NCBI GenBank assembly: GCA_041659785.1
Contig: JBAZXO010000001.1
Location: 19,795 to 83,794, forward strand
Length of the DNA: 64,000 nt
Reading direction: 5' to 3'
Source of the DNA: Minisyncoccota bacterium
GTDB taxonomy: Bacteria; Patescibacteriota; Minisyncoccia; Phycocordibacterales; UBA9973
Each line of letters begins with the position of its first letter. Positions within the stretch are counted from its first letter, which is position 1. A model generated the notes under the pieces. The model saw only the letters and a program-made list of their open reading frames with translations, had not been told where the DNA came from and did not search any database. This document shows, in pieces, positions 15,347-42,424 of the stretch. Position numbers and translations under genes: made by a program.

Positions 15347-17146
15347 ATGGAAATTAGAAATATAGCAATAATAGCTCACGTGGACCACGGCAAGACGACC
15401 TTGACTGATGCTTTAATGAAGCAAAATGGTGGATTGCAAGATGAGGGAGTATCAATGGATTCAAACGATCTTGAAAAAGAGCGTGGTATTACCATTTATT
15501 CTAAAAACACCTCGATTAATTATAAAGATACAAAGATAAACATTGTAGATACTCCTGGTCACGCAGACTTCGGTTCTGAGGTGGAACGTGTTTTGCGCGC
15601 AATTGATTCAGTTCTGTTGCTCGTGGATGCAGCTGAAGGCCCAATGCCACAGACTAGATTCGTTCTAAAGAAATCTCTAGAATTAGGATTGAAGCCAATC
15701 GTGGTTATAAACAAAATAGATAAACCAGCAGCTGATGCACACAGGGTGCATGAAGAAGTTTTAGATTTATTTTTCGAACTAGGCGCTAATGAAGAGCAAG
15801 CAAATTTCGAAACTATTTATGCAATAGGACGTGAAGGTAAAGCATTTAGACATTTAGATGATAAGTCTGAAGACCTTTCTCCTTTACTTGATTTAATATT
15901 AGAAAAAGTTGCACCAGCTTCTCTCGACGAAGAAGGAAAAATGTCTGCACAAGTTTTTAACCTAGGTTATGATAATTTCTTAGGAAGAATGGCTATCGCA
16001 CGTATTTATTCTGGAAAAATGTTATCTGGAAGTCAGGTATTCGTTAAAGGTGAAAATGGAACACGAAAAGGTAAAATCACAAAGCTTTTTTCTTTTGAAG
16101 GGATAAACAGAAAAGAGATAGAGTATGCAACTTCTGGTGACATAGTCTTACTATCTGGAATTCCAGATATTTATATTGGAGAAACATTATGTGAAGATGA
16201 GAGCATCACACCATTACCGCACATCGCTATCGATGAGCCAACCCTTTCCCTTAATTTTTTAGTTAACGATTCTCCTTTTGCTGGGAAAGAAGGTAAATTC
16301 CTTACCTCAAGACAAATTAAAGAAAGACTAGAAAAAGAATTAGAAATAAACGTTGGACTTAAGGTTGATTTTTCTCCGGACCAGGGCGACAAAATGGGTC
16401 CTTCCTTTTTTAAAGTATACGGCCGAGGTGAACTTCATATTGCAATCTTGCTTGAAAATATGCGCAGAGAAGGTTTCGAGATGCAAGTTTCTCAACCAGA
16501 AGTTATTATCAAAGAAGAAAATGGGGTAAAAACAGAGCCATATGAAGAGCTCGTGATTGATGTTCCGATGGAATCAAGCGGATCTGTAATAGAAAAAATT
16601 GGGAAAAGGCGTGGTCTCATGAGAGACATGGTAGAGAAAGAAGGTATAGCTAGAATTATTTTTGATATACCTACACGTGGTCTCTTGGGTTACCGTAGTG
16701 AATTTATTATAGACACAAAAGGAGAGGGAATAATGTCTTCTCGGGTTACTGGCTTCAGAGAATACGCTGGAGAAATCAAAAAAAGGGAGTACGGCTCTAT
16801 GGCTTCTATGGTATCTGGTAAGGCAGTAGCCTTTTCACTTGCAAATTTACAGGAACGTGGTATATTGTATGTAGATCACGGTACTGAGGTTTATGAAGGA
16901 ATGGTTGTCGGTAACGTTTTGAAAGGAGACGACATGTCTGTTAACCCCACAAAAGGTAAACAGCTCACAAACATGCGAGCTTCTGGTACAGACGAAGCTA
17001 TCACCCTTAACCCTGTTTTTACCTTGAGTATCGAACGTGGTCTTGAGGTTATGAATGGAGATGAATATTTAGAAATCACACCAAAATCTGTTCGACTTCG
17101 TAAAAAATATCTTACAGAGATTGACCGAATTAAAGCAAAGAGATAA
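15347..17146 (+). CDS. typA: translational GTPase TypA/BipA
   Basis: IAIIAHVDHGKTTLTDAL..DTPGHADF..NKIDK, then EF-G-like domains and the BipA C-terminal domain. Confidence 0.9.
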   Translation: MEIRNIAIIAHVDHGKTTLTDALMKQNGGLQDEGVSMDSNDLEKERGITIYSKNTSINYKDTKINIVDTPGHADFGSEVERVLRAIDSVLLLVDAAEGPMPQTRFVLKKSLELGLKPIVVINKIDKPAADAHRVHEEVLDLFFELGANEEQANFETIYAIGREGKAFRHLDDKSEDLSPLLDLILEKVAPASLDEEGKMSAQVFNLGYDNFLGRMAIARIYSGKMLSGSQVFVKGENGTRKGKITKLFSFEGINRKEIEYATSGDIVLLSGIPDIYIGETLCEDESITPLPHIAIDEPTLSLNFLVNDSPFAGKEGKFLTSRQIKERLEKELEINVGLKVDFSPDQGDKMGPSFFKVYGRGELHIAILLENMRREGFEMQVSQPEVIIKEENGVKTEPYEELVIDVPMESSGSVIEKIGKRRGLMRDMVEKEGIARIIFDIPTRGLLGYRSEFIIDTKGEGIMSSRVTGFREYAGEIKKREYGSMASMVSGKAVAFSLANLQERGILYVDHGTEVYEGMVVGNVLKGDDMSVNPTKGKQLTNMRASGTDEAITLNPVFTLSIERGLEVMNGDEYLEITPKSVRLRKKYLTEIDRIKAKR

Positions 17147-17167
17147 CCCACGCCACGGCGGGGCAAG
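17147..17167. repeat. family A mini-palindrome (reverse orientation) between the typA stop and the next start codon
   Basis: cccacgccacggcggggcaag, then aaaattt, then ATG at 17175. Confidence 0.7.
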
Positions 17168-17174
17168 AAAATTT

Positions 17175-18206
17175 ATGGCAACAATATCTTTTAAACCACA
17201 AAAAATAACTAAAAAAATAACCTCACATCTTCAAGATCGCGCTCTAGATGTAATCATGAATCGTTTCGGTTTGACAGCCGACGGTAAGAAGAAAACCCTT
17301 GAAGAAATTGGTAAAAAATACAACATTACACGAGAACGTGTTCGTCAGGTTGAAGAGGCAGCTCTTAGTCTTGTAAAAAAGTCCGATGCTTATAAAAACG
17401 AGCAAGCAATTTTTGATGAATTAAAACAAATAGTACATAACCTCGGATCTATCGTCGCTGAACACGAATTCTTACCTTATATTTCTAAAGATAAAAATAC
17501 TCAAAATCATATTAACTTTTTCTTAGTATTAGCTGATGTTTTCAAGAAGCATCGTGAAGATGATCATTTTCATACTCGTTACAGCGTAGATGATTCTATG
17601 GCTGATAAGGTTCATGAAACTCTTCGAAAACTTTATTCTAGTCTAAAAGATGAAGACCTCATTCCTGAGACTGAAATGATTAAAAAGTTTTTTGATCAAA
17701 TGAAAGATGTTGCTGAGGAATACAGAGATGCAGAAATGGCCAAGAGATGGCTCTCTATGTCTAAGACTATTGCAAAAAATGAACTAGGAGAATGGGGTAA
17801 AGCTTCTTCTCCCAATATTCGTACTCGTGGTGTTAAAGATTATGCTTTCCTCGTTATGAGACGTCATGGTTCTCCAATGCATTTCAAGGAAGTGGCAGAT
17901 TCTATTTCTAAAACTTTTGGTAAAAAAATACATTATGCAACATGCCACAATGAACTTATTAAAGACTCTCGTTTCGTCTTAGTGGGCCGTGGAATGTATG
18001 CTCTTGCTGAATGGGGTTATAAAGCAGGTATTGCTCGTGAGGTCATTCAAGATATACTAAAGAGGGAAGGAGCTCCATTATCTAAAGAGGATATTGTCAC
18101 GAAAGTAATGAAAGAAAGATATTTCAAGAAAAATACTATTTTAGTCAATCTTGCTAACTCAAAATATTTCAAGAAAAACTCAAAAGGGCTTTATACCCTA
18201 GCTTAA
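17175..18206 (+). CDS. DNA-binding protein with an N-terminal sigma-70 region-4-like HTH and a C-terminal HARE-HTH-like winged helix
   Basis: TLEEIGKKYNITRERVRQVEEAAL (sigma70_r4-like). ..MHFKEVADSI..DSRFVLVGRGMYALAEWGY resembles the HARE-HTH motif. The true start is probably ATG 17175 rather than 17121. Confidence 0.45.
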   Translation: MATISFKPQKITKKITSHLQDRALDVIMNRFGLTADGKKKTLEEIGKKYNITRERVRQVEEAALSLVKKSDAYKNEQAIFDELKQIVHNLGSIVAEHEFLPYISKDKNTQNHINFFLVLADVFKKHREDDHFHTRYSVDDSMADKVHETLRKLYSSLKDEDLIPETEMIKKFFDQMKDVAEEYRDAEMAKRWLSMSKTIAKNELGEWGKASSPNIRTRGVKDYAFLVMRRHGSPMHFKEVADSISKTFGKKIHYATCHNELIKDSRFVLVGRGMYALAEWGYKAGIAREVIQDILKREGAPLSKEDIVTKVMKERYFKKNTILVNLANSKYFKKNSKGLYTLA

Positions 18207-18338: not shown

Positions 18339-19748
18339 ATGGCTGGTGCAGAAAAAAAATCAGGTGGATTCATAGATTCTATTGAAGAAGGAATAAAAGA
18401 ATATTGGCCTTGGATCTTGGTCATAGTTGTTGTCTATTTTATTTTTCACTTTGATTTTCAATATACTCTAATAAGAAATTTACTGCCTTTAATAGGTACG
18501 ATATTTTTGGGCTGGATAGCTTGGAAAATGTGGGTTCATTATGTACAACAAGATTTTATTTCTGGAATAGATTTTGTTTTGCTTGAGATAGTTCCTCCAC
18601 GTGAAGTGTTACGTAGCCCTAAAGCTATGGAACTTTTTTTTACTAATGCCCTTTATCATTGGAGTCAGAAAGGAGGTCGTGAGGAGTATTGGCAAGGAGC
18701 TGTGTGGTTTTGGTTCTCTTTAGAAATTGCATCTATTGATGGGCAAGTACATTTTTATATACGAACACCGACGCGTGTAAGGGGTCTAATAGAGACACAA
18801 ATATACGCACAATATCCACAAGCACAAGTGAAAGCTGTGGAAGATTATACCCTCGCAGTAGATAAAATTTCTCCTGAGGGTGAATGGAACGCTTGGGGTT
18901 GTGAGTTTGCCCTAAAAAGACCAGAAGCGTTTCCAATTAAGACATATGTGGACTTTGGTTTAGATAAAGATCCTAAAGAAGAATTTAAAGTTGACCCCAT
19001 TTCTCCTGTTATTGAGCTTTTTGGCTCACTTCAGAAAGGAGAACAAATGTGGATGCAGATTGTTGTTAGGCCTTCTAAAAAATCATATCATACTAAGGGT
19101 ACATGGTTTGGACATCATGATTGGGTACAAGAAGCCAAGAATGAATTTTTTGTATTCATGAAGGATTACATGACTATAAAGGGTGAAGGTCATACACTTG
19201 GTAAAGATGCAAGAATTGAAATTCGTTCTCAGCCACACTTAGATACAACAATTAAAGCAATGAATGCAAAAATTACTAAGATTGGCTTTGATACTGGAAT
19301 TCGAGTTTGTTATGTGGCAAAAAAAGAAGTATATGATATGAGTAATAGAAGAAATATTCGTCTTATCTTTCGTCAATATGCAAATCCGGAAAATAATGAA
19401 CTTGAACGCGTAAATTCTACTCAAGCAGATGCTTTCAATACTTCTTTTTTCCCGCTTTCTAACGAAAAAGTTATGATATTAGCTGATAGAATGGTTCACG
19501 AATTTCGTGAACGAGGTTTCTTTCATCTTCCTATGAGGCATAATCTTTTTAATAATCATACGATTACAGGATTTACTTCTTTAGTCGTTAAACAATTTTG
19601 GCTTCCATATTTTCACCCCCCAACATTTGTTTTAAATGTAGAGGAGCTTGCTACATTGTGGCATTTCCCTGGTCAGATATTGAAAGTTCCTACGCTTGAA
19701 CGTATTGAGTCTAAGGAAGCTTCTCCTCCTACAAACTTGCCTATATAA
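18339..19748 (+). CDS. hypothetical membrane protein (two N-terminal TM helices, large W/Y-rich soluble domain)
   Basis: 469-aa ORF; no domain recognised. Confidence 0.4.
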   Translation: MAGAEKKSGGFIDSIEEGIKEYWPWILVIVVVYFIFHFDFQYTLIRNLLPLIGTIFLGWIAWKMWVHYVQQDFISGIDFVLLEIVPPREVLRSPKAMELFFTNALYHWSQKGGREEYWQGAVWFWFSLEIASIDGQVHFYIRTPTRVRGLIETQIYAQYPQAQVKAVEDYTLAVDKISPEGEWNAWGCEFALKRPEAFPIKTYVDFGLDKDPKEEFKVDPISPVIELFGSLQKGEQMWMQIVVRPSKKSYHTKGTWFGHHDWVQEAKNEFFVFMKDYMTIKGEGHTLGKDARIEIRSQPHLDTTIKAMNAKITKIGFDTGIRVCYVAKKEVYDMSNRRNIRLIFRQYANPENNELERVNSTQADAFNTSFFPLSNEKVMILADRMVHEFRERGFFHLPMRHNLFNNHTITGFTSLVVKQFWLPYFHPPTFVLNVEELATLWHFPGQILKVPTLERIESKEASPPTNLPI

Positions 19749-25196: not shown

Positions 25197-26282
25197 ATGA
25201 ATAAAAAAATATTAAGTGTTTTAGTTTTTTCTTTGTTCGTTTTAGGTGCCACAAAAGCTTTCGCTTCTTTAACCTTCAGCTCAGCTGCTATTACAGGAGA
25301 TGCTGCTTCTACGATAGATGTAGGTGCAGGGAATGCTTTGTCATTACAGACTACGAACAACGGAGCGATAACCACAGGAACAGGTTTAGTTACATTAGGA
25401 GGAAGTTTAAATGCTGCAGGTATTATTACTTTACCCATGACTACAAGTTCAACGACTGGTGTCATCTATAAAGGAGCAACACCTTTTATTCATAATTTTA
25501 ATTTTGGAAATAATGGAACAGTTACAACTGATGGTAAAAATACCTTCGTTGGAATAAATGCTGGTAATTTTACAATGGGGAGTACTGCGACATTAACATA
25601 TGAAAGCAGTAGTAATGTTGGTATAGGTCAAGATGTCTTAACAATTAATACTAAGGGATATGGTAATACTGCAACAGGTTGGTCTGATTTAAAACTTAAC
25701 ACTACTGGTAGTTGGAACACTGCATATGGGGTAACGGCACTTTATAATAATACAACGGGTAGTAATAATGTAGCAATTGGTGGAGAGGCATTAGGTTTTA
25801 ACACCATAGGTGGAGAAAACACTGCAGTTGGTGTTTATGCTCTTGATTTCAATACTACAGGAAGTCTTAATACCGCTAATGGTATGTACTCTCTTAGCTC
25901 TAATAGCACTGGTTCTCGCAACGTTGCATTGGGATACGCCGCGGGAGCGTACGAATTAGGGTCTAGTTCATTTTACGTAGATGCTTATGACCGAGCAAAC
26001 ACTGCAGGGGATAAAGCAGGGGCTTTGCTATACGGAACATTTAATGCGACGCCAAGTCTTCAGACTTTAACTATCAATGGAAAGATTACTGCAAGTAATG
26101 CTATGAATAAAGGCACAGTAGCTCTCTCTGCTGGCACAGCCACAGTCACAGTTGTCTCTGGTGCTGTCTGCGTAGTTAGCGAAACGACAACTGCTACAAA
26201 TGGAGTTAAGGGTGCAGTCGTCGGCACAACGCTTACAATCACGGGTACTGGTACAGATACTATTGCTTATATTTGTTTGTAA
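25197..26282 (+). CDS. secreted G/T/N-rich repeat surface protein (paralog A)
   Basis: Signal peptide MNKKILSVLVFSLFVLGATKAFA. Degenerate NTxxG..AL repeats. The N-terminal 55 aa and the promoter are duplicated at 36875. Confidence 0.5.
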   Translation: MNKKILSVLVFSLFVLGATKAFASLTFSSAAITGDAASTIDVGAGNALSLQTTNNGAITTGTGLVTLGGSLNAAGIITLPMTTSSTTGVIYKGATPFIHNFNFGNNGTVTTDGKNTFVGINAGNFTMGSTATLTYESSSNVGIGQDVLTINTKGYGNTATGWSDLKLNTTGSWNTAYGVTALYNNTTGSNNVAIGGEALGFNTIGGENTAVGVYALDFNTTGSLNTANGMYSLSSNSTGSRNVALGYAAGAYELGSSSFYVDAYDRANTAGDKAGALLYGTFNATPSLQTLTINGKITASNAMNKGTVALSAGTATVTVVSGAVCVVSETTTATNGVKGAVVGTTLTITGTGTDTIAYICL

Positions 26283-26330: not shown

Positions 26331-27530
26331 ATGGGTATTTTTTCTGGACACAAAAAAGAGAATGAATTGATATTAGTTTTTAATATTGGCTCGTCTTCTG
26401 TGGGCGGAGCACTTTTTGAAACACAAAGCTCCGGTATCCCTAAGATAATCTTATCTGTTCGTGAACCGATACAGCTCGAGAAGACTATAGATGTAGATCA
26501 TTTTTTACTGTTAACGATAAAATCTTTAGAAATTGTTTCTAAAAAAATTTTTAAGAAGGGGCTAGGTGCTCCAGAGCAAGTATTCTGTGTTCTTTCTTCG
26601 GCTTGGTATGCTTCACAAACAAGGATAATTAATTTTAAAAAAAATACCCCTTTTGTTTTTACTGAAAAATTAGCTGATGAGTTAGTAAAAAAAGAAATAA
26701 AAATATTTGAAGAAGAACATTTGTTGAAATATAACACCGTTGACAATAGGGTCCGCACTATCGAACTTAAAAATATCAAAACGATGTTGAATGGTTATGA
26801 GACATCCAAGCCATTAAACCAAAAGACAAAAGAATTAGAAATGACTATTTTTGTATCTATCAGTGGAGAACAAATATTAAAAAAAATAGAAGATACGATA
26901 GGGAAATATTTTCATTTCAAACAAATAAAGTTCTCTTCTTTCGTATTGTCTTTTTTTACAGTGGTACGAGACATGTTCGTAAAACAAGAGAATTTCCTTT
27001 TATTAGATATTGGAGGGGAAGTAACAGATATATCTATGATAAAGAAGAATACTCTACGAAATTCAATATCTTTTCCTCTTGGTCGTAATTTCTTAATACG
27101 AGGAGTTGCAGAAGATCTAGATTGTACTTTAGATGAAGCTTATTCCTTCATTTCTCTTTTTAAAGATGGGCACGCAGAAGAATCTATTGCAAAAAAACTT
27201 TCATTAATCCTAAATAAATTAAGAGCACAATGGCTAAAAGAGTTTCAGGATTCTTTAGCAAATTTATCAAATGATATTTCTATACCCTCGACTATTTATA
27301 TAGCTATCGACAAAGACTTGGTGGACTTTTTTACTGAAACAATTAAAACTGAACAGTTTAGTCAGTACACATTAACAGAATCAAAATTCGAAGTTATCTT
27401 TTTAAGCACTGAGTTGCTTCATGGTACTGCAGTATTTAAAGAAGATGTAATACGCGAGCAGTTTCTGATTATTGACTCTATTTATATTAATCGTTTTCTT
27501 TCTAATCCCGCTATAGCGGAGCGAGCATAA
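26331..27530 (+). CDS. actin-fold ATPase of the FtsA/PilM family
   Basis: LVFNIGSSSVGGALFE (phosphate-1-like) and LLDIGGEVTDISMI (phosphate-2-like). Confidence 0.45.
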   Translation: MGIFSGHKKENELILVFNIGSSSVGGALFETQSSGIPKIILSVREPIQLEKTIDVDHFLLLTIKSLEIVSKKIFKKGLGAPEQVFCVLSSAWYASQTRIINFKKNTPFVFTEKLADELVKKEIKIFEEEHLLKYNTVDNRVRTIELKNIKTMLNGYETSKPLNQKTKELEMTIFVSISGEQILKKIEDTIGKYFHFKQIKFSSFVLSFFTVVRDMFVKQENFLLLDIGGEVTDISMIKKNTLRNSISFPLGRNFLIRGVAEDLDCTLDEAYSFISLFKDGHAEESIAKKLSLILNKLRAQWLKEFQDSLANLSNDISIPSTIYIAIDKDLVDFFTETIKTEQFSQYTLTESKFEVIFLSTELLHGTAVFKEDVIREQFLIIDSIYINRFLSNPAIAERA

Positions 27531-27531
27531 T

Positions 27532-28782
27532 ATGGCAAAACACTTATTAGAAGACATGGTGAGGGTAAAAAATATCAAAAAAACTCCCATCAAAATAGAA
27601 CCCCCAAAGATAGAGCCTTTTAAAAATGAGCGTATACCTGAGATAGAAGTAAAATATTCTAAAAATAAATCCAGATACATGCTTTGGTTCGTAGCATTAA
27701 TTTCTGTCGTATTTTGTTTTTTTGCCATTTCTTTTTTATTTGCAAAAGCAGAAATCTCGGTAAATCTAAAAACAAAAGATGTTGTTTTAAATGAAAACTT
27801 ATCTGCTCTTATAAATTCTAATACAGACGTATTGCCTTTCGAGCTCACTCATCTTTCAGGTGATACATCGAAGACAATCGTTTTGGAAGAGAGGGATTTA
27901 AAAGAAAATGCTAAAGGCAAGATTGTTGTTTATAATAAATTTAGTTCTAGTCCTCAAACTCTCGCTATTGATACACGCTTAGAAGGATCCAATAATAAAA
28001 TTTATAAAACAAAAACAAAGGTAATCATTCCAGGAATGAGTAAAGCTGGAATTCCGGGTCAAATTGGCGTGGACATATATGCCTTAGAACAAGGAGCAGC
28101 GTATAATAGTGCTCCACTTGATTTTAAGATAGCAGCCTTTAAGGGAACGAGTAAATATGCAAAATTTTATGGCAGATCAGTGGGGGATATTACAGGTGGT
28201 ATTGTTGGTAAATCTCGCCAAATTAGTGATTTACAAAAAACTCAAACAACAGATGAGCTCAAGCCAATTTTACAAGACAAGCTTTACAATAAAATTGCGA
28301 GTCAGATTCCAGGATTTTTGTTATATAAGGATGCTATGTTTTTAAATGTTGAAGATATTACCACTGGGGCCGTAGCTCCCGATGGTTCAGCTGTTCTAAC
28401 TTTAAAAGGCACTCTTTACGGTATCATTTTTAATGAAAAAAAATTAACTGATAAAATAGCTAAAGACAATATTGAAAAATATGATAATAGTGAAGTTTAT
28501 ATACCAAACATTAAGAGTTTAAACTTTTCTCTTTCCGACAAAGGAAATATCGTATTTGATAGTGTAAAAAATATAAATTTCACTTTGTCGGGCCCTACGA
28601 AGATTGTCTGGAAACTTGATATAAATAAATTTACTACAGATTTACTTGGTAAACCTAAAAAAGACTTTAATCAACTTCTTTCAGAATATCCCAGTATTAG
28701 TTCTGCTCTTGTGAAGTTGAGCCCACCCTGGATACAATCTATTCCCAATAAAGCTAAAGATATAAAAATAACAGTAAATTAG
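27532..28782 (+). CDS. hypothetical bitopic membrane protein (cytoplasmic K/P-rich N-terminus, one TM, large extracytoplasmic domain)
   Basis: ORF directly downstream of the PilM/FtsA-like gene (1-nt gap); no domain recognised. Confidence 0.35.
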   Translation: MAKHLLEDMVRVKNIKKTPIKIEPPKIEPFKNERIPEIEVKYSKNKSRYMLWFVALISVVFCFFAISFLFAKAEISVNLKTKDVVLNENLSALINSNTDVLPFELTHLSGDTSKTIVLEERDLKENAKGKIVVYNKFSSSPQTLAIDTRLEGSNNKIYKTKTKVIIPGMSKAGIPGQIGVDIYALEQGAAYNSAPLDFKIAAFKGTSKYAKFYGRSVGDITGGIVGKSRQISDLQKTQTTDELKPILQDKLYNKIASQIPGFLLYKDAMFLNVEDITTGAVAPDGSAVLTLKGTLYGIIFNEKKLTDKIAKDNIEKYDNSEVYIPNIKSLNFSLSDKGNIVFDSVKNINFTLSGPTKIVWKLDINKFTTDLLGKPKKDFNQLLSEYPSISSALVKLSPPWIQSIPNKAKDIKITVN

Positions 28783-34236: not shown

Positions 34237-34770
34237 TTATTTTCCGAAAGTTTTAAATAAAACTTTCTTACTCTCTTCGTCTATAAATTCGGTGACAATG
34301 ATCATCATTTCTGTAGTTAGTCCTAAATCTTTTTTAATATTCGTAAATAAATGTTCGTATGGGAAAGGGGAGATCCATGCAGAATTTTTTAAACATATGA
34401 AGCCCGCTTTTTTTAAAAGGTAGCGCAAGCTCTCGCGTTCAGATTTTCTATCTTCAGGAAGATCTAGGAGAATAATTCTCCATAAACCATCCCAAGAAGT
34501 ATTTACCAGAGTCGTATCATTGTCTAACTTTAAGCTATTCATTTTCTTTCTTCCTTCTTTTGTCAGCCTAGCATATTCGTTTTGTGGGGATGGTATTTGC
34601 TCTATGAGTCCAGCTTCCTTTAAGCCCTTTAAAGAGCGTGTAAGGGCATATTTGTCCGCCTGAGAGCAGTCCTTTTGGTTTATCCTTTCTGTTAGTTCTG
34701 ATAGTGAAATAGCTGATTTTTCCCCTAAAATCTTGAGTATTTTCTTGGAATATTTTGATTTGCTTGACAT
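34237..34770 (-). CDS. PaaX-family-like winged-helix transcriptional regulator, divergently transcribed from dnaK
   Basis: N-terminal wHTH (..SLSELTERINQ..ALTRSLKGLKEAGLIEQ). C-terminal DGLWRIILLDLPE..RESLRYLLKKAGFICLKNSAWISP resembles the PaaX C-terminal domain. Confidence 0.4.
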   Translation of the reverse strand: MSSKSKYSKKILKILGEKSAISLSELTERINQKDCSQADKYALTRSLKGLKEAGLIEQIPSPQNEYARLTKEGRKKMNSLKLDNDTTLVNTSWDGLWRIILLDLPEDRKSERESLRYLLKKAGFICLKNSAWISPFPYEHLFTNIKKDLGLTTEMMIIVTEFIDEESKKVLFKTFGK

Positions 34771-34857
34771 AGATATATACTATCATATATACTACTTTTA
34801 TACAAATAATTAGTGGTCGCGAAATATAAGTTAAATTATAAAATAATCATATAACAT

Positions 34858-36750
34858 ATGAGTAAAATAATAGGTATAGATTTGGGTACAACAAATTCGG
34901 CTGTCGCTATCATTGAAGGAGGCGCACCAAAGATTATTGAAAATGTCGAAGGAAACAGAACGACACCTTCTGTGGTTGCCACAGCAAAAAATGGTGACCG
35001 CATCGTCGGCTTACTTGCTAAGAGGCAAGCAGTTACAAATCCAGAAAATACAATTGCTGAAATCAAGCGCTTCATGGGGCATCGTTTTGATGATCCAGAA
35101 GTTCAGAAAGATCATCAGACTGCAGCATTTAAAATTGAAGCCGGAGATGGTGGTGGAGTAAAAGTAAAAATGACAGATAAGTTTTACCGACCAGAAGAAA
35201 TTTCTGCGATGATCTTACAGAAAATTAAAGCAGATGTGGAAGCAAAGTTGGGTGAAAAGATTACTGAAGCTGTCATCACTGTGCCAGCATATTTCAACGA
35301 TGCTCAAAGAAAGGCTACCAAGGATGCAGGAGCTATCGCAGGACTTGATGTGAAGCGTATCATCAATGAACCTACAGCTGCAGCACTTGCTTATGGTTTC
35401 GATAAAAAGAAAAATGAAAAAGTTGTCGTCTACGATTTCGGTGGAGGAACTTTCGATGTGTCCGTCCTTGAAATAGGTGATGATGTCATAGAAGTAAAAT
35501 CAACCGATGGAGACAGTCACATGGGTGGAGGTGATATTGATAGAAAAATAATTGCATGGATTGCTGACGAATATAAAAAGGAATCAGGTATTGATGTAAC
35601 GAAAGATCCACTTGCACACCAGAGACTAAAAGAAGCAGCAGAAAAAGCTAAACATGAACTTTCTACAACAATAGAAACTGAAATAAATATCCCATTTATA
35701 ACTTCCGATGCATCTGGACCAAAACACTTACTCTTGAAGATGACTCGTGCCATGCTCGAATCTCTTGCGAAAGAATACATTGATCGCTCTATCGAAATCA
35801 CGAAGAGAGCCCTCGCTGCTTCTCCATTTAAAATGAATGAGATAAATGAAATCATCATGGTGGGTGGTCAGACCAGAATGCCAGCTATCGTCTCTGCTGT
35901 TAAAAATCTCTTCGGCAAAGAGCCAAATATGTCTATAAATCCTGACGAAGTCGTAGCCCTCGGTGCTGCAGTGCAGGCTGGAGTCCTAGCCGGTGATGTG
36001 CGAGACGTGCTTCTTCTTGATGTTATACCTCTATCTTTAGGTATTGAGACATTGGGTGGAGTGTCTACAAAGTTAATTGAAAGAAATACAACTATTCCAT
36101 CTTCTAAATCTCAAGTATTCTCTACCGCTGCTGACAATCAGACTTCTGTAGAAATACATATCGTTCAAGGTGAACGTCCAATGGCTTCCGACAACAAATC
36201 TCTCGGACGATTTATCTTGGACGGAGTTCCACCAGCACCTCGTGGCATGCCACAAATCGAAGTCGCTTTCGACGTCGATGCGAACGGAATCTTGAATGTC
36301 ACCGCGAAGGATAAAGCTTCAGGAAAGAGCCAATCAATAAAAATTGAAGCAAGTTCTGGACTTAAAGACGAAGATATTAAAAAGATGCAAGCCGATGCTG
36401 AGCTTCATGCCGAAGAAGATAAAAAGAAGAAAGAAAATGCAGAAGTGAAAAATACTGCAGAGATGATTATCTACACTGCAGAGAAAGCATTGAAAGATAA
36501 TGAAGCAAAAATTCCTGCAGAATTAAAGGATGAAGTAAATGCTAAAATTACTGCACTCCGTGGAGTAAAAGATGGCACTGATGGTGAAGCGATAAAGAAA
36601 GCTACTGAAGAACTTTCAACAGAGATGTCTAAAATCGGTGAAGCTGTATCTAAGGCCGGCGCCGAGACTCCGGGAGCAAGTGCTCCAGAAGAGCAACCCG
36701 CAGAAGTAAAAGAAAAGACAGAAGGTGAAGAAGAAACACCAAAAGCGTAA
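34858..36750 (+). CDS. dnaK: molecular chaperone DnaK (Hsp70)
   Basis: [23 protein letters not shown], and the full Hsp70 architecture with an acidic C-terminal tail. Confidence 0.95.
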
Positions 36751-36782
36751 TTGTTCAACACTCGGTGTTAAACATTCAAAAA

Positions 36783-36809
36783 CCGCTAGGTAAGACCTAG
36801 CGGTTTTTG
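36783..36809 (+). terminator. intrinsic terminator downstream of dnaK
   Basis: ccgctagg-taaga-cctagcgg hairpin followed by ttttt. Confidence 0.65.
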
Positions 36810-36874: not shown

Positions 36875-37861
36875 ATGAATAAAAAAATATTAAGTTTGTT
36901 TGTTTTATTGGTATTGGTTTCGGGGGCAACTAAAACTTTTGCATCTTTAACATTTAGCTCTGCTGCCATTACAGGAGACACAGCTTCTACGATAGACGTA
37001 GGTGCAGGAAATGCGTTATCGTTACAGACTACAAATAATGGGAATATTATTACAGGAAGTGGAAATTTTGGAGTTGGTATTGGTATACCTACACAAAAAC
37101 TTGATGTTGTCGGTTTTGTTAATACTGATCTTGGTTATAAACAAGCAGGAAATACAATTCTTTTTACCAAAACTTCTAATCATTCTACTGCTGTGGGTGC
37201 TTCTTCTGCAGCTTCATGGATGGCTACTACGCCTCTTGATTATTCTGCAACTGCTGTAGGCTATGGCGCTCTTGCAACAACTCCTGTAGATGTTGGAGGT
37301 TTAGCATGGGATAATTCTGCTTTCGGAGTTAATTCTCTTGCAAGTACTACAACAGGTGGATATAACGTTGCAGTTGGTGGTTATTCTCTTTTTTCTAACA
37401 CTACAGGTTGGTTTAACACTACAATAGGTGATTCATCTCTTGGTTCAACCACTACAGGATGGGGTAATAGTGCTAATGGGAATGGGGCTCTTTTATCTAA
37501 CACCACAGGCTCATACAATACAGCACTCGGCATGAGTGCTCTTTATTATAATTCAGTGGGTTCCAATAATATTGCCTTGGGGCATAATGCTGGTAGTTAC
37601 GAAACAGGTTCAAATTCTTTTTATGTAGACAATCAAGATCGTTTAAATACTGCAGGAGATAAAGCGAATGCTATTCTTTATGGAATAATGGCACCAGCGG
37701 CAGTTAATCAGACATTGCATATCAATGCAGTAGTGATGCCAATCCAGGCTACGACAGCTGCTGCACCAGCTTATGTAAAGGGAGGAATGTATTTTGATAC
37801 AACTTTAAATAAGTTAAGAGTAGGGGGAGCGACTGGTTGGGAAACAGTTACTTCATCATAA
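36875..37861 (+). CDS. secreted G/T/N-rich repeat surface protein (paralog B of 25197)
   Basis: Upstream region plus the first ~55 aa are about 80% identical at nucleotide level to 25120-25370; the remainder is divergent. The -10 TATAAT lies at 36834-36839, preceded by GGGGAGGGG. Confidence 0.5.
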   Translation: MNKKILSLFVLLVLVSGATKTFASLTFSSAAITGDTASTIDVGAGNALSLQTTNNGNIITGSGNFGVGIGIPTQKLDVVGFVNTDLGYKQAGNTILFTKTSNHSTAVGASSAASWMATTPLDYSATAVGYGALATTPVDVGGLAWDNSAFGVNSLASTTTGGYNVAVGGYSLFSNTTGWFNTTIGDSSLGSTTTGWGNSANGNGALLSNTTGSYNTALGMSALYYNSVGSNNIALGHNAGSYETGSNSFYVDNQDRLNTAGDKANAILYGIMAPAAVNQTLHINAVVMPIQATTAAAPAYVKGGMYFDTTLNKLRVGGATGWETVTSS

Positions 37862-37930
37862 AAAGTAATTTATAAAAAGCCCCCATTGGGGGCTTTTGGT
37901 TTTAGAAGATAAATTGTATAATAGTATTAT

Positions 37931-40072
37931 ATGGACTTGCCAGAAATACCTATAAATAAAGATGTTACCTATCTGGGTCTTACTACTTTTCGTGACAAAA
38001 ATCAGCTCTTCGGCATAAAGCGCAAGGACAGACGCCAGCATGTTTATATTCTCGGAAAGTCAGGTACGGGTAAATCTGTGCTCATGTTCAACATGATTAT
38101 TCAGAACATCCAGAATGGCGAAGGTGTCTGCGTAGTTGACCCGCACGGAGAGCTCGTAGAAGGAGTCTTGTCGGCTATTCCACCGGAACGTATTAAAGAT
38201 GTAGTTTATTTCAACCCTGCTGATGCCGATCACCATATTGGTTTCAACGTTTTAGAATTAATTGATCCTCAATACAAACATCTCGTGGCTTCAGGGCTCA
38301 TGGGTATTTTCACTAAAATTTGGGCGAATGCATGGAGTGCCCGAATGGAATATATTTTAAACAATTGTATTTTAGCTTTGCTCGATACTCCAGGTACGAC
38401 ACTGCTCGGCATTCCTAGAATGCTCGTCGATAAAGATTATCGCCAGAAAATAATTGCGAATTTAAAAGACCCAGTTATTAAGGCTTTCTGGATTCACGAG
38501 TATGAAGCTTGGCAAGATAAATTTAGAAATGAAGCGATCGCTCCGATTCAAAACAAAGTCGGGCAATTTCTCTCTACATCCATCATCCGCAATGTCGTCG
38601 GTCAATCTTTAAGTACTATAAATATTTTCGACATCATGAATGATGGGAAGATTTTCCTCGTAAACGTTTCGAAAGGGCGCATCGGTGAAGATAACTCTGG
38701 CCTCCTAGGAGGAATGATCATTACCAAAATTCAGCTCGCTGCGATGGAGCGTGTTCGTATTCCGGAAGATCATCGTAAAGACTTTTACCTATATGTCGAC
38801 GAATTCCAGAATTTCGTGACGGACGCTTTTGCAGGTATTTTGTCTGAGGCTAGAAAATACAGATTGAACCTTACTGTTGCCCACCAATACACTGCCCAGC
38901 TCGTCGTGGACAAGAGTTCTGCCGTGCGAGATGCTGTCTTTGGAAACGTGGGTACGATGATTGTCTTTCGTGTTGGCTCTGATGATGCAGACTTCTTGGA
39001 AAAAGAATTTGATCCAGAATTTACTCCTTCGGACATTGTTAATTTGCCGAATTATAAAATTTATTTGAAATTAATGATAGATGGAGTTACGTCTAGACCT
39101 TTTTCTGCGAAGACACTTCCACCTATGGTTAAGTCCGGTGATAAAAAAGTAGAAGAAGCAGTTATCAAATCTTCTCGTGAACTTTATTGTAGACCCAAGG
39201 AATTAGTAGAAAGAGAAATTAATGACTGGAGCGGAATGTCACTTGGGAATTATAGTGAATCAGGAGGGGGAGCGGGTATGGAGAAATTCCCAGTTATCTG
39301 TTCACTTTGTAAACTAGAAAAGACTGTACCTTTCAAGCCAGAGCCAGGCAGAGCTGTTTATTGTAAGGAATGTATTGCAAAAATAAAATCCGGAGAGGTA
39401 AAGGTAGAGAAAAAAGGACAAGATCAAATAAATTACGATGAATCTAAATTTTTTAAACCGTTAGCTGATTTAGGTATAGAATTTCAACCAAAGAATGTAA
39501 AAGTTGAAGAAGAAAACAGATATCCTGAGAGAGTAGAGAAACATACTTCAGCACCAACAAAACCTTCTTCTGTGCCAAAACCATATATTTCTGCAAATAA
39601 ACCCTCCTCTTCGGCGGGCAGGCCAGGAATTATGGGGGCAATTAAAAAAGTTTTTGTTCCCACTCCAAAGGTAAACCAAAATAAAGCTGAGGCTCCTAAA
39701 AAAATAGATAATTCAGCACTTAGGGAAGTTTTAAATAAAACTTTACATAGTGAACAGGCGAGCCCGGTGATTCCAACTCCAGCACCAGTCAAGACTCCTG
39801 TGCCAGAGCCTGTTTCTCTTGATTCCTTAAAAGATAAAATAAAAGAAGAAGATAAAAAACTTGCCCGTCCATCTGGTGGAAATTTTTCATCATACAATGA
39901 TCGTTCTGCTGGCGCAGATGAGATGAATAAATTGAAAAATTTGATTTCAGAAAAAATTGAAACTAAAAAAGAAGAAGTAGCTCCAGCTCCAGCTCCAACA
40001 CCAATTCCGATACCTCAAAAACCAGCAACAAAAGAAGTACCTGAAGATGTTTTAAGAAAAGTTTTAGAATAA
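37931..40072 (+). CDS. VirD4/TraD/TraG-family type IV coupling-protein-like P-loop ATPase with a C-terminal CxxC..CxxC zinc ribbon and a P/K/A-rich low-complexity tail
   Basis: Walker A YILGKSGTGKS, VVDPHGE, Walker B FYLYVDEFQNF, ARKYRLNLTVAHQYTAQL and FGNVGTMIVFRVG (TraG-D_C-like). CSLCKLEK...CKECI ribbon. Confidence 0.6.
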   Translation: MDLPEIPINKDVTYLGLTTFRDKNQLFGIKRKDRRQHVYILGKSGTGKSVLMFNMIIQNIQNGEGVCVVDPHGELVEGVLSAIPPERIKDVVYFNPADADHHIGFNVLELIDPQYKHLVASGLMGIFTKIWANAWSARMEYILNNCILALLDTPGTTLLGIPRMLVDKDYRQKIIANLKDPVIKAFWIHEYEAWQDKFRNEAIAPIQNKVGQFLSTSIIRNVVGQSLSTINIFDIMNDGKIFLVNVSKGRIGEDNSGLLGGMIITKIQLAAMERVRIPEDHRKDFYLYVDEFQNFVTDAFAGILSEARKYRLNLTVAHQYTAQLVVDKSSAVRDAVFGNVGTMIVFRVGSDDADFLEKEFDPEFTPSDIVNLPNYKIYLKLMIDGVTSRPFSAKTLPPMVKSGDKKVEEAVIKSSRELYCRPKELVEREINDWSGMSLGNYSESGGGAGMEKFPVICSLCKLEKTVPFKPEPGRAVYCKECIAKIKSGEVKVEKKGQDQINYDESKFFKPLADLGIEFQPKNVKVEEENRYPERVEKHTSAPTKPSSVPKPYISANKPSSSAGRPGIMGAIKKVFVPTPKVNQNKAEAPKKIDNSALREVLNKTLHSEQASPVIPTPAPVKTPVPEPVSLDSLKDKIKEEDKKLARPSGGNFSSYNDRSAGADEMNKLKNLISEKIETKKEEVAPAPAPTPIPIPQKPATKEVPEDVLRKVLE

Positions 40073-40075
40073 TAT

Positions 40076-41539
40076 ATGGCAAAGTCTAATAGAGTACAGA
40101 TAATAAAATATGCTCCGCCACCACCAGAATTACCAGTCTTCGGAAAGGTAAAGCCAGAAGATGTGTCTTTTATTGGGCGGACAAATTATGTAGCTTCTCT
40201 AGAAGAAAAGAAGTTTGTTTTCGGCATCAAGAGAGTAGACCGCCGAAGACATCTTTATATTATCGGAAAGTCCGGAGTCGGTAAGACGAAATTGCTCGAG
40301 CTTTTTATACGTCAAGATGTTTCTTATAATCATGGATTGTGTTTGATCGATCCACACGGAGACGTCATAGATTCCATGCTTGATTATATTCCTAAAGATC
40401 GTATCGAAGATGTTTGCATTATAGATCCTTCTGATATTGATTTTCCGGCTTCTTTCAACCCACTAGCGAACGTGGACCCAATGTTTAAGTTTCAGCTCAC
40501 TCAAGGCCTCATTGAAGTTTTCCAGAAACAATTCGGAGCAAATTGGACGCCTCGTCTAGAACACGTTTTTCGTTTTACTTGTTTAGCACTCCTAGATTAT
40601 CCTCATGCCACGATGCGTGGAATGATTTCAATGCTTACTGACAGAAATTACAGACAGAAAGTCGTGGAATACATTACAGACGACATGGTGAAGAGATTCT
40701 TCGCTATTGAGTTCGCAGACTGGTCTGAGAAATTCGATACAGACGCTATCATTCCACTTGTAAACAAACTCGGTCAATTCCTCTCAGACCCACTTCTCCG
40801 AAATATTTTCGGACAGAAGCAAAACAAAATAGATATCACTAAATTAATGAATGAAGGGAAAATAATCCTTATCAATCTTTCTAAAGGGCGCCTTGGTGAA
40901 GAAAATTCTTCTTTTCTTGGTTCTATATTTTTAACAAAAATAAAACAAGCTGGTATGGAGCGTGCTGCTATTCCTGAACAAGATCGTAACGACTTTTATC
41001 TCTATGTGGATGAGTTCCAAAACGTCGTGACACAGACCTTCGAAAATATTTTATCAGAAGCTAGAAAATATGGCTTGAATTTAACAATTGCCCATCAGTA
41101 TGTGGGACAGATTTTACCTAAAGTGCATCAGGCCGTGCTCGGAAATGTCGGAAGTGTAATTTGTTTCCGTGTCGGCGGTGAAGATGCTGTAAAACTAAAG
41201 CCAGAATTCGCACCCGTTTTCGACGTAAAGGATATGATCAACCTTGCTGTAGCAGAATTTTATATAAAAATGACGATTGATGGGGAGTCTTATGACCCAT
41301 TTTCTGCAGAGACTCTACGTGTATTACCACCAACTCATCCTTCATACAGGCAAGAGATTATAGACGCATCTCGCAGAAAATATTCGATACCCAAGGATGA
41401 TGCAGCGACGCTTATAGCTGAAGAAGAAGCTACAATTATTCGAAGTGTAGAAGAAAAAGCGATAATTGAAGGTAAGACAAAAAGAAAAGATAGAGAAGAT
41501 AATTCAGAAACTTCCCAAGAAGGGGAGCCTATGATATAG
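40076..41539 (+). CDS. second VirD4/TraD-family coupling-protein-like ATPase (shorter tandem paralog)
   Basis: YIIGKSGVGKT, LIDPHGD, FYLYVDEFQNV, ARKYGLNLTIAHQYVGQI. Roughly 40% identical to the upstream paralog. Confidence 0.6.
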   Translation: MAKSNRVQIIKYAPPPPELPVFGKVKPEDVSFIGRTNYVASLEEKKFVFGIKRVDRRRHLYIIGKSGVGKTKLLELFIRQDVSYNHGLCLIDPHGDVIDSMLDYIPKDRIEDVCIIDPSDIDFPASFNPLANVDPMFKFQLTQGLIEVFQKQFGANWTPRLEHVFRFTCLALLDYPHATMRGMISMLTDRNYRQKVVEYITDDMVKRFFAIEFADWSEKFDTDAIIPLVNKLGQFLSDPLLRNIFGQKQNKIDITKLMNEGKIILINLSKGRLGEENSSFLGSIFLTKIKQAGMERAAIPEQDRNDFYLYVDEFQNVVTQTFENILSEARKYGLNLTIAHQYVGQILPKVHQAVLGNVGSVICFRVGGEDAVKLKPEFAPVFDVKDMINLAVAEFYIKMTIDGESYDPFSAETLRVLPPTHPSYRQEIIDASRRKYSIPKDDAATLIAEEEATIIRSVEEKAIIEGKTKRKDREDNSETSQEGEPMI

Positions 41540-41554
41540 TTTTCAAACGTAATT

Positions 41555-42424
41555 ATGTCAAAAGATTATTATGAAATTTTAGGCGTTAATAAAGGTGCGT
41601 CAAAGGACGAAATTAAAAAGGCTTTTTATAAGTTGGCGCACAAATATCATCCTGATAAAAAGGGTGGGAATGAAGAGCAGTTTAAAAAGGTAAACGAAGC
41701 CTATCAAGTTCTCTCTGATGATGCGAAACGCGCAAAATATGATCAATATGGCTCAGGCTTTGAGAGTGCGGGAGCGGGAGGGTATGGAGGAGGTCAGGGC
41801 TTTGGAGGGTTTGATTTCAATGGAGGTTTTCAAGGAAGTGGTGCCGATTTTGATTTCGGAAACCTAAATGACATATTTAGTGATTTTTTTGGTGGCGGGG
41901 GTGGAATGGGTGGAGGTAGACCTCAGTCTCGTCGTGGACGCGATATTTCTACTGAGATACAGATTTCTCTCACTGACTCTATGTTGGGTTTAAATAAAAA
42001 GATTTTACTCACAAAGATGTCGACTTGTCTTACTTGTAATGGTTCTGGCGCGAAGGCTGGATCAAAGATGGAAACCTGTAAGCATTGTAATGGCCAAGGT
42101 AAAATTCACGAACAAAAGAGAACAATCTTTGGGAACATTGGGAGCACAAGAGCTTGTGAAGTTTGTTTCGGTACAGGAGAAGTTCCAAAAGAAAAATGCG
42201 AAACATGTAAAGGTAAAGGTGTACTCCGTCGTGAAGAAGAAGTCTCAATCAATATTCCTGTCGGCATACGTGATGGGCAGACATTAAAAATGTCAGGTTA
42301 TGGAGAAGCAGTTTCGAGAGGTACTACAGGAGATCTCCTCATACAAATAAAAGTAAAAATACCTAATAAAATTTCTAAAAAAGCCCGTGAGCTTTTAGAA
42401 GAGCTTAAAAAAGAAGGAATTTAG
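41555..42424 (+). CDS. dnaJ: chaperone DnaJ, short form (J domain, G/F region, four CxxCxGxG zinc-finger repeats, truncated C-terminal domain)
   Basis: [13 protein letters not shown] domain; G/F-rich linker; [32 protein letters not shown]. Confidence 0.85.

Follow-up and report, generated by a model that had tools for sequence, protein, structure and literature searches.

The window considered here, a stretch of 64 kb of DNA, carries two open reading frames, A1 and A2, which lie in tandem on the forward strand between dnaK and dnaJ with a gap of only 3 bp and encode, as the original prediction had proposed, paralogous ATPases, which share 45% identity over 433 amino acids (E 1e-132) (Table 1). 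The intrinsic terminator located 3' of dnaK, an equivalent of which also follows dnaK in a relative (locus L001), sets dnaK apart from the A1-A2-dnaJ unit, and a second, terminator-like hairpin lies 34 nt 5' of the A1 start. Downstream, A2 and dnaJ run in the same direction, separated by 15 bp without a strong terminator, and dnaJ is probably cotranscribed with A1 and A2.

Table 1. Genes and sequence features of the window that are discussed in the text
Feature	Position	Strand	Description
c0a	17121-18206	+	361 aa, with Sigma70_r4 and HARE-HTH domains; partner conserved 5' of c0b and ATPase
c0b	18339-19748	+	469 aa; N-terminal part of the split coupling protein
grpE	33102-33740		Gene order: grpE, CutA1, PaaX-like regulator (minus strand), dnaK
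dnaK	34858-36750		5' of the terminator hairpin
Intrinsic terminator 3' of dnaK	36777-36809	+	15-bp stem, then T-run; -23.1 kcal/mol, z -5.7
Strain-specific surface-protein gene	36875-37861		Signal-peptide protein, 328 aa; between the two hairpins
Terminator-like hairpin 3' of the surface-protein gene	37875-37897	+	-16.6 kcal/mol, z -2.6, then UUUUGGUUUU
A1	37931-40072	+	T4CP-type ATPase, 713 aa; NBD and all-alpha domain (aa ~30-430), then a Zn ribbon and a disordered tail with a conserved end peptide
Treble-clef zinc ribbon of A1, CxxC-x17-CxxC	39281-39385	+	aa 451-485; Pfam zf_Tbcl_2, TIGR04272
Low-complexity K/P/E/S-rich tail of A1	39389-40069	+	aa 487-713, from composition; ends with near-invariant EVPEDVLRKVLE (40034-40069)
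A2	40076-41539	+	T4CP-type ATPase, 487 aa; NBD and all-alpha domain, short charged tail ending ...SQEGEPMI (conserved peptide)
dnaJ, short form	41555-42424	+	289 aa; Pfam DnaJ, DnaJ_CXXCXGXG, half of DnaJ_C

The P-loop NBD typical of TrwB/VirD4, Walker A and Walker B included, was recognized above the curated family thresholds. In particular, A1 exceeded the cut-offs of all three Pfam models against which the prediction was to be checked, namely, TrwB_AAD_bind (42.3 bits), T4SS-DNA_transf (29.0 bits), and TraG-D_C (24.4 bits). The Walker A motif reads GKSGTGKS in A1 (aa 42) and GKSGVGKT in A2 (aa 64), the final serine predicted for both being replaced by a threonine in the latter, while the other predicted motifs, i.e., DPHG, Walker B (FYLYVDEFQN), and AHQY (aa 317 in A1 and aa 339 in A2), occur in both proteins. 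Furthermore, the AF2 model of A2 presents seven helices (aa 135 to 245) between the core strands, which correspond to an inserted all-alpha domain, the models being only moderate (pLDDT 64 and 66, the former for A2), and the TrwB_AAD_bind alignment covers profile positions 14 to 309 of 387. An NBD with an inserted all-alpha domain is shared with TrwB of R388, TraD of F, and VirD4, and TrwB is the best match in both sequence and fold. It is very unlikely that A1 and A2 are HerA/FtsK-type motors of DNA repair or chromosome segregation, unrelated to the T4SS coupling proteins (T4CPs): in agreement with the predicted assignment, T4CP models and structures outscored those of HerA/FtsK in every comparison, no match to FtsK_SpoIIIE, FtsK-gamma, or HAS-barrel was obtained in A1 or A2, and a NurA-like nuclease was not seen among the neighbors. 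Moreover, Southlakia epibionticum possesses a separate, canonical, and essential FtsK (SEML1_0096), on the basis of which a role as FtsK replacement was also discarded. VirB4 models barely score on the two proteins (15 bits for TIGR00929 and about 14 bits for the VirB4-like protein of Embleya), and T4CPs are the nearer relatives of A1 and A2 when VirB4, HerA, and FtsK are compared.

Different from TrwB, TraD, and VirD4, A1 features an extra zinc ribbon, which had been correctly predicted from its CxxC-X17-CxxC spacing: the CSLC-x17-CKEC segment (aa 457 to 481) matches zf_Tbcl_2 (39.4 bits) and TIGR04272 (41.3 bits), and all 120 A1 orthologues, but none of 120 A2 orthologues, possess the ribbon. 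The long low-complexity tail expected for A1 is there (227 amino acids), although its composition (K 32, P 28, E 23, S 19, V 18, and A 17) makes it K/P/E/S rich instead of rich in proline, lysine, and alanine. The length of the A1 orthologues ranges from 647 to 760 amino acids, the tail being the variable part, yet the last 12 residues are kept in approximately 113 to 117 out of 120. In TraD of F, a disordered C-terminal tail terminates in a short acidic peptide, through which the DNA-binding protein TraM is bound. A1 and A2 resemble this arrangement, with variable tails, invariant end peptides, and a gene for a DNA-binding partner (c0a) conserved nearby, and the conserved C-terminal peptides may act as docking peptides.

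No transmembrane (TM) helix was found in A1 or A2, the best 19-residue Kyte-Doolittle window reaching 1.1 to 1.2, and both open reading frames already use the earliest start codon available downstream of a stop, so that no upstream extension is possible. The absence of N-terminal TM helices had thus been correctly read, but the notion of two soluble coupling ATPases derived from it is a gene-split artifact, as the membrane hairpin and the N-terminal domain are encoded by a separate gene, c0b. Its product presents a TM hairpin (aa ~22 to 40 and 46 to 68), followed by a cytoplasmic domain of about 400 amino acids that ends with LNVEELATLWHFPG...PPTNLP, and is homologous to the N-terminal 30 to 400 residues of the long members of the family. 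The N-terminal domain of TrwB, TraD, and VirD4 spans instead about 70 amino acids and is part of the same polypeptide as the ATPase, whereas here the anchor is provided in trans; in Saccharibacteria the N-terminal domain is fused to the ATPase. The existence of an entry for c0b homologues among the precomputed families (PF26449) was also noticed.

The correspondence with a single coupling protein is best illustrated by the T4CP of the Embleya sp. plasmid NZ_CP108778 (WP_331738717, 812 aa), which belongs to a monoderm MPF-FATA system and shares 30% identity with the ATPases (181 to 208 bits over the ATPase region). Its N-terminal part of about 390 residues is homologous to c0b and carries an L(S/N)xxELAxLxHxP...PPxxxP linker just before the ATPase. 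This collinear homology (44.7 bits) required a diverse HMM of 94 sequences, and hhalign with a shallow c0b alignment (Neff 1.9) returned only a nonsignificant match to the linker motif of the Embleya protein. Since the Embleya protein is homologous to both parts, c0b together with A1/A2 is equivalent to that single protein. However, the Embleya T4CP is one polypeptide encoded in a conjugation cluster (PrgI, VirB4-like protein, T4CP, relaxase-like protein, and NlpC-P60 protein), while in the window it corresponds to two separate parts encoded 18 kb from each other, with duplication and no link to T4SS genes. Both parts are also covered by phrog_5156, a single profile of 824 positions, where c0b matches positions 51 to 314 and the ATPases match positions 386 to 805. 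These phage proteins, like Bacillus phage G gp156 and SPO1 gp27.4, are distant relatives, and a phage origin of A1 and A2 was dismissed in view of the low identity of the ATPase (22 to 28%). The fold match between c0b and VirB4/TrwK is only suggestive, with a TM-score of 0.26 to 0.31.

The gene immediately upstream of c0b, c0a, encodes a protein with Sigma70_r4 (43.8 bits, aa 36 to 86) and HARE-HTH (46.1 bits, aa 238 to 298) domains, and a literature search on HARE-HTH plus sigma proteins gave nothing relevant to it. As c0a and c0b lie 18 kb upstream of A1 and A2 in the window, their coupling with the ATPases rests on other genomes and on gene fusions. In 64 of 82 related loci, c0b is either fused to an ATPase (24 loci) or located at most two open reading frames upstream of it (40 loci), and c0a adjoins the open reading frame containing c0b in 40 of the 82. 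In one locus (L082), c0a, c0b, and the ATPase form one open reading frame of 1,344 amino acids, a single case that could be due to a sequencing error, and double-ATPase fusions also occur (P0271, P0323, and P0373). From these arrangements, A1 and A2 of the window are predicted to pair with c0b or c0a. Clustering of the neighbors in the 82 loci revealed no universal partner besides c0a and c0b. SecD-SecF is found upstream in 22 loci and DprA-TopA in 11, both reflecting lineage-level synteny. The split anchor, the c0a-c0b-ATPase cassette, the two clades described below, and the C-terminal peptides were not found in the literature searched, as far as it could be reached.

The chaperone neighborhood, to which the original prediction had attached meaning, turned out to be confined to close relatives. 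The dnaK/A1-A2-dnaJ order is kept in six related genomes and A1...A2-dnaJ in two more (L001, L003 to L006, and L009; L002 is a short contig with the same A2 as L001), and dnaK-dnaJ lies directly upstream of a c0a-c0b-A1 cassette in L023 and L060. Together with the short gaps between the codirectional A1, A2, and dnaJ and the lack of a terminator between the last two, this could suggest that the ATPases work with DnaK/DnaJ, for example, in unfolding or passing on protein substrates. We regard this as highly improbable, as dnaK or dnaJ occurs within 7 kb in only 2 of 75 loci beyond the close relatives, which is about the chance expectation, A2 adjoins CutA or c0b in slightly more distant Paceibacteria (L007, L008, L010, and L019), a strong terminator stands between dnaK and A1 both here and in L001, and neither ATPase contains a domain known to bind Hsp70 or J proteins. 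A heat shock regulon link was likewise rejected, since no CIRCE element was found within the window with up to three mismatches allowed and dnaK is terminated before A1. The dnaK-dnaJ placement is a lineage-specific rearrangement within a conserved housekeeping neighborhood, carrying no evidence of a chaperone-linked function and no detectable functional signal; dnaJ is context for A1-A2, with a functional partnership that stays putative. To speak of genes inserted into a chaperone operon was an interpretation at odds with the order kept in relatives, the ordinary GC content, and the high identity of the orthologues. The case shows that a neighborhood can mislead if one genome alone is read.

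The orthologues of A2 (85 to 94% identical) and A1 (70 to 86%) are distributed across many Nomurabacteria/Paceibacteria. Each ATPase search saturated, with more than 8,000 matches, and the family comprises 21,650 clusters at 50% identity (E < 1e-3). Two ancient paralog clades could be distinguished in a neighbor-joining tree, which is distance based, coarse, and free of support values, and in which A1 was placed in the A1 clade. The VirD4-type homologues described by Quinonero-Coronel et al. (2025; PMC12102498) belong to this family: they number about two per genome, are mostly far from virB4, and were considered "possibly exapted," with 5,713 homologues in 2,918 of 3,035 Patescibacteria genomes, only 148 of which are near virB4. 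The same holds for SEML1_0293 and SEML1_0142 of S. epibionticum, and the families are flagged as "core" and "Patescibacteria-enriched" in Table S1 of Wang et al. (2023; PMC10633639). In both studies, the family appears just as HMM matches or annotations. That A1 and A2 are mobile-element cargo or anti-phage defense ATPases (mad8, DndH/DptH, or HerA-Sir2-like) is barely credible in the light of this near-universal presence in the phylum (PMC12102498), the syntenic position in relatives, the very high conservation, and the ordinary base composition; moreover, the window contains housekeeping genes only, and neither an integrase, a transposase, nor an effector partner was found. PADLOC gave weak scores (mad8, 47 to 49 bits; HerA, at most 32 bits), and a defense ATPase was rejected, no partner genes of such a system being present in the window.

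Useful indications come from S. epibionticum. The A1-type SEML1_0293 (921 aa) adjoins a gene annotated as RpoS and TopA (Wang et al., 2023; PMC10633639), a setting that matches the loci in which TopA and c0a precede a c0b-ATPase fusion (L025 to L027, L075, and L077). This syntenic gene is nonessential, while the T4SS genes are essential, as are SEML1_0294, syntenic with c0a, and the second T4CP-like paralogue, SEML1_0142 (PMC10633639). Since the c0a counterpart is essential and the adjacent fused ATPase is not, c0a may have a function of its own, e.g., in transcription, and be a mere neighbor of the ATPase.

One may ask whether either or both of the ATPases, once docked on c0b, serve in trans to recruit substrates for a VirB4-type T4SS encoded elsewhere in the genome, as classical coupling proteins do. 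The nearest characterized relatives of A1 and A2 are real conjugative T4CPs, T4CP genes often lie away from virB4 (PMC12102498), VirB4 occurs in 80% of the Patescibacteria genomes, and the T4SS cluster of S. epibionticum has no recognizable coupling protein, with SEML1_0142 being essential like the T4SS. However, the genomes with T4CP-like genes (2,918) exceed those with VirB4 (2,417), relaxases are nearly absent (109 across the 3,035 genomes; PMC12102498), and conservation among the neighbors extends to an HTH protein and to housekeeping genes instead of Mpf genes. The synteny check that had been proposed also went against a T4SS-like system at this locus, as neither VirB4, relaxase, nor VirB6 was found in the 64-kb window and no VirB4-like open reading frame within 7 kb in the 82 related loci. 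Different from TrwB, TraD, and VirD4, A1 and A2 are core genes of the chromosome, present as two paralogues, with no linkage to relaxase or Mpf genes. On balance, classical coupling in trans seems to us an unlikely, though not negligible, explanation for the pair. For one paralogue it may apply, because T4CPs are often far from virB4 and SEML1_0142 is essential. The A1 type, in our view, is more likely to act apart from the essential VirB4 T4SS than as a classical coupling protein, because SEML1_0293 is nonessential while the T4SS is essential and no VirB4-like open reading frame was found in the window or in the 82 loci.

The explanation that we favor, and consider rather probable, is that A1 and A2 are split descendants of a coupling protein that work as a membrane-docked, HTH-adaptor-guided hexameric translocase. 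In this genome, they represent the two anciently diverged paralogous ATPases of Patescibacteria, which would derive from the coupling protein (T4CP of the VirD4/TrwB type) of conjugation systems of monoderms and are now fixed as chromosomal core genes. A1 and/or A2 would assemble into TrwB-like hexameric rings and dock onto c0b at the cytoplasmic membrane, so that a complete coupling protein is restored; a substrate, most likely DNA or nucleoprotein, would be delivered by c0a, the A1 zinc ribbon, and the peptides at the tail ends, and ATP hydrolysis would push it toward a membrane conduit. The link with DNA is suggested because of the Sigma70_r4 and HARE-HTH domains of c0a, the zinc ribbon of A1, and the occurrence of DprA-TopA upstream in some loci. 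SecD-SecF, upstream in twice as many, fits a protein substrate equally well.

It is possible to hypothesize, more tentatively, a previously undescribed phylum-wide machine, independent of the VirB4 T4SS and part of core epibiont biology, composed of two motor paralogues, a detachable membrane/N-terminal domain subunit, and an HTH adaptor, to which arrays of cysteine-rich proteins of about 570 amino acids, with the CxxC-x17-CxxC ribbon of A1, may be added in many lineages. Such a machine would traffic DNA or protein, and one of its paralogues is apparently essential in S. epibionticum, the sole member amenable to genetics. The ATPase family is core and phylum enriched, being present in about 96% of Patescibacteria genomes, above the T4SS itself, and Patescibacteria represent a large share of bacterial diversity, while most of the genes that are conserved and enriched in the phylum lack an assigned function. 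The vague annotation of "T4SS DNA-binding domain protein" can now be replaced by a module of four defined genes whose interactions can be tested, and, if this module moves DNA or proteins without a T4SS, it would bear directly on the exchange of material between these reduced epibionts and their hosts.

In both A1 and A2, the tandem ATPase genes of coupling-protein (T4CP) type between dnaK and dnaJ, the Pfam models TrwB_AAD_bind, T4SS-DNA_transf and TraG-D_C exceeded their curated cut-offs. The DUF87/HerA model of Pfam passes too, with 31.7 bits versus 42.3 bits of the best T4CP model for A1 and, slightly above the best T4CP model, 26.8 versus 24.7 bits for A2, and the best NCBIfam matches are TraD and VirD4-like models, far under their equivalog cut-offs. 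The figures listed in the family comparison are 23.1 for TrwB, 21.6 for the DptH/DndH C-domain, 20.9 for VirB4, 20.6 for DotL, 18.1 for Cagbeta, 17.4 for HerA and 12.4 for FtsK. The closest annotated relative in functional context outside the CPR (Patescibacteria) is an 812-aa T4CP of an Embleya plasmid, whose gene is surrounded by PrgI, a VirB4-like ATPase, a relaxase-like protein and NlpC/P60; it scores 208 bits versus A1 and 181 bits versus A2, and the adjoining VirB4-like ATPase only about 14 bits. Thus, the Pfam models and the Embleya matches place the ATPase domains of A1 and A2 in the T4CP family, as the original prediction had it, and not among HerA/FtsK or unrelated AAA proteins.

The window, with a low GC content of about 36%, is filled by housekeeping genes (ClpB, IF-2, BipA, AlaRS, MnmA, a ribosomal protein/rpoA block, GrpE, DnaK, DnaJ, CysRS, RecR, DnaB, MraY and FtsW), and the top matches of its proteins come from Nomurabacteria/Paceibacteria (Patescibacteria/CPR); A1 is matched at 100% identity by a protein encoded on a 318-kb contig of a public Paceibacterota MAG. 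The two predicted paralogs are indeed present as ORFs separated by 3 bp and 45% identical across 433 aa, neither of which can be extended upstream, and neither contains a hydrophobic segment, in agreement with the predicted absence of N-terminal TM helices. The ATPase motifs listed for the pair were found in both, with the correction that the Walker A of A2 ends in T (GKSGVGKT).

Features of the window considered in this analysis
Feature	Position	Strand	Description
c0a	17121-18206		Sigma70_r4 at aa 36-86; HARE-HTH at aa 238-298
c0b	18339-19748		N-terminal TM hairpin, then about 400 aa
Three consecutive ORFs	25197-26282, 26331-27530, 27532-28782		361-416 aa; between AlaRS and S13/S11 ribosomal block
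PaaX-like winged-helix regulator	34237-34793		Cas2-like middle domain; divergent from dnaK
Near-consensus promoter	34764-34793		TTGACA-18-TATACT
Terminator after dnaK	36777-36809		-23.1 kcal/mol, strong
Signal-peptide protein	36875-37861	+	328 aa; repeats like phage tail fibre/virion proteins (phrog_23837, 6002, 4636)
Second hairpin	37875-37897		3' of the signal-peptide gene
A1	37931-40072	+	ORF, 713 aa
A2	40076-41539	+	ORF, 487 aa
dnaJ	41555-42424	+	289 aa, short

Many relatives of these ATPases carry an N-terminal extension of 250 to 440 aa. Neighbour clustering across 82 loci revealed a recurrent cassette in which SecD-SecF or DprA-TopA is followed by c0a (about 370 aa), c0b (about 460 aa) and the ATPase, and both c0a, the Sigma70_r4/HARE-HTH gene, and c0b, the gene with a TM hairpin and N-domain, are encoded 18 kb upstream of A1. 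The region of about 400 aa in c0b matched no family in the Pfam copy searched, and c0b homologues carry the precomputed annotation PF26449; towards its C-terminus c0b has the segment LNxEELAxLWHFP. That c0b is the N-terminal module of the coupling protein, detached from it, follows from three independent lines of evidence. Its residues from about 50 to 469 align to the first 30 to 400 residues of family members of 830 to 1100 aa (for example, with an E value of 4.6e-43 for the database protein P0370). Furthermore, an HMM of 94 diverse c0b domains gives a collinear match of 44.7 bits to the conjugative T4CP of Embleya, in its N-terminal part, the alignment including the motif L(N/S)xxELAxLxHxP...PPxxxP directly N-terminal of the ATPase. 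Finally, positions 51 to 314 of the curated phrog_5156 profile match c0b, and positions 386 to 805 match A1/A2. In 24 of the 82 loci c0b is fused to the ATPase, and in 40 it is encoded at most two ORFs upstream; c0a is its direct neighbour in 40, and at one locus (L082) a single 1344-aa ORF joins c0a, c0b and the ATPase. Hence c0a, c0b and the ATPase form a conserved cassette, and this genome encodes the ancestral N-domain/TM module as a gene of its own; the reading of A1 and A2 as soluble ATPases inserted in a chaperone neighbourhood is replaced by that of a split gene.

Other arrangements of these domains could also be noticed. The phrog_5156 profile spans both the c0b-like and the ATPase parts, and phage G gp156, SPO1 gp27.4 and their kin in large Bacillus phages are distant homologues (22 to 28% identity). 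In the database proteins P0271, P0323 and P0373, of about 1200 aa, two complete T4CP-type ATPase domains stand in tandem in one chain, which suggests that a single assembly can employ two ATPase units. A Sulfitobacter mediterraneus plasmid (NZ_CP081110, 99994-101181), which is alphaproteobacterial, encodes an orphan 395-aa homologue without N-domain, between a recombinase and transposases, 38% identical to A2 (>285 bits).

Protein searches with A1 and A2 returned at least 8000 matches each, and the search without word index gave 21,650 clusters (50% identity) at E<1e-3 and 5,623 at E<1e-30; a scan of species-representative genomes yielded 80 loci in many Patescibacteria classes. Identity to the best orthologues is 70 to 86% for A1 and 82 to 94% for A2 (best 120). 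In a neighbour-joining distance tree of ATPase domains, built without support values and rooted on the Embleya T4CP, the CPR sequences fall into an A1 clade and an A2 clade, with the Sulfitobacter homologue outside both. Since each clade spans several classes, the duplication is old, and A1 and A2 represent two old paralogue clades. Nine loci (L016, L022, L023, L038, L052, L057, L061, L069 and L081) carry a Patescibacteria-type ATPase or cassette on contigs titled as Gammaproteobacteria, Alphaproteobacteria, Chlamydiae or Bdellovibrionales MAGs, and are probably mis-binned or mislabelled records.

The order dnaK / A1-A2-dnaJ or A1...A2-dnaJ was found in six related genomes (L001, L003-L006 and L009; L002 is a short contig with the same A2 as L001). 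This recurrence, together with the strong conservation of A1 and A2, speaks against an insertion into a chaperone operon. Somewhat more distant Paceibacteria present A2-CutA-A1, c0b-c36-A2-A1, or A1-A2 at other sites, and dnaK or dnaJ lies within 7 kb in 2 of the 75 other loci (L023 and L060), about the chance level. The dnaK/dnaJ context is therefore local, and the significance attributed to it is not upheld.

Given the hairpins upstream of A1 and the lack of a terminator in the 15-bp gap between A2 and dnaJ, the transcription unit is likely A1-A2-dnaJ, possibly with the following gene for a 196-aa membrane protein, insulated from dnaK. An equivalent hairpin follows dnaK in the relative L001, where the surface-protein gene is absent. 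The signal-peptide gene, flanked on both sides by terminator hairpins, has no Pfam match and no homologue among the 82 related loci, and seems to be a strain-specific gene that landed between dnaK and A1. The short DnaJ has the J domain, the G/F region, the zinc finger and no more than the first half of DnaJ_C, so that its second C-terminal subdomain and its dimerisation end appear to be missing; relatives have versions of 221 to 224 or 364 to 373 aa. The whole window contains no CIRCE element, so control by heat shock is here probably of a type other than HrcA/CIRCE. No Pfam family reaches threshold in any of the three consecutive ORFs near AlaRS; a weak FtsA/actin-like match (23 bits) occurs in the middle one.

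The predicted zinc ribbon of A1 (CSLC-x17-CKEC) matches zf_Tbcl_2 and TIGR04272 and is kept in 120 of 120 A1 orthologues and in none of 120 A2 orthologues. The long tail downstream of it was also recovered, being 227 aa in length and rich in K/P/E/S rather than a 200-aa proline/lysine/alanine-rich segment. Across 120 orthologues of each, the A1 tails vary in length and end in ...EVPEDVLRK(I/V)LE, and the A2 tails end in ...SQE(A/G)EPMI. A disordered tail with an invariant peptide at its end is typical of docking motifs, and TraD of the F plasmid uses its tail in this way to bind TraM, a DNA-binding protein; by analogy, the terminal peptides of A1 and A2 may serve for docking. A ribbon of the A1 type also closes a family of about 570 aa outside the window (23 to 48 cysteines, with a zinc ribbon at the N-terminus and, at the C-terminus, a CxxC-x17-CxxC that ends in ...YCExCYxxExY), which has no Pfam match and 51 copies in 18 of the 82 loci (L004-L007, L009, L011-L018, L020-L022, L048 and L080). 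In close relatives its genes lie interspersed with A1, A2 and dnaJ, and in other classes they stand in arrays adjoining A2-clade genes; these proteins could be partners or cargo.

That the family exists and is encoded apart from virB4 has been published: a survey of 3,035 Patescibacteria genomes, with which the present conservation data agree, counted 5,713 VirD4-type homologues in 2,918 of them, just 148 of these homologues lying close to virB4, along with VirB4 in 2,417 genomes and just 109 relaxases, and its authors remarked that the t4cp "may have been exapted" (PMC12102498). The literature searched appears to contain no description of the split gene layout, of the conserved HTH partner, of the two clades or of the terminal peptides. 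In Southlakia epibionticum, Tn-seq (Table S1 of Wang et al. 2023, PMC10633639) classes SEML1_0293 (921 aa, TrwB_AAD_bind) as non-essential and the adjoining 349-aa SEML1_0294, annotated "RpoS", as essential; SEML1_0293 also has TopA close by, a layout that matches the TopA-c0a-[c0b::ATPase] loci. A second paralogue, SEML1_0142 (1019 aa), is essential, as is the small ORF preceding it (SEML1_0141); in L008, L010 and L019 the gene directly 5' of A2 likewise encodes a small protein, a membrane protein of about 175 aa without Pfam match. SEML1_0142, 0293 and 0294 all belong to families marked as core and Patescibacteria-enriched, and the organism has a separate canonical FtsK (SEML1_0096) and RpoD (SEML1_0063) (PMC10633639).

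The essential T4SS cluster of S. epibionticum has no recognisable coupling protein (PMC10633639). A classical coupling role in trans for one of the paralogues seems a rather unlikely alternative; since the orthologue of A1 is dispensable and the T4SS essential, the A1 type is more likely independent of the T4SS. We suggest that A1 and/or A2 would form hexamers docking on the membrane protein c0b, that c0a, the zinc ribbon of A1 and the terminal peptides would recruit a nucleic-acid or nucleoprotein substrate and, as SecDF is a frequent neighbour, that the substrate may instead be a protein; in the former case, the nucleic acid or nucleoprotein would be translocated by ATP hydrolysis.
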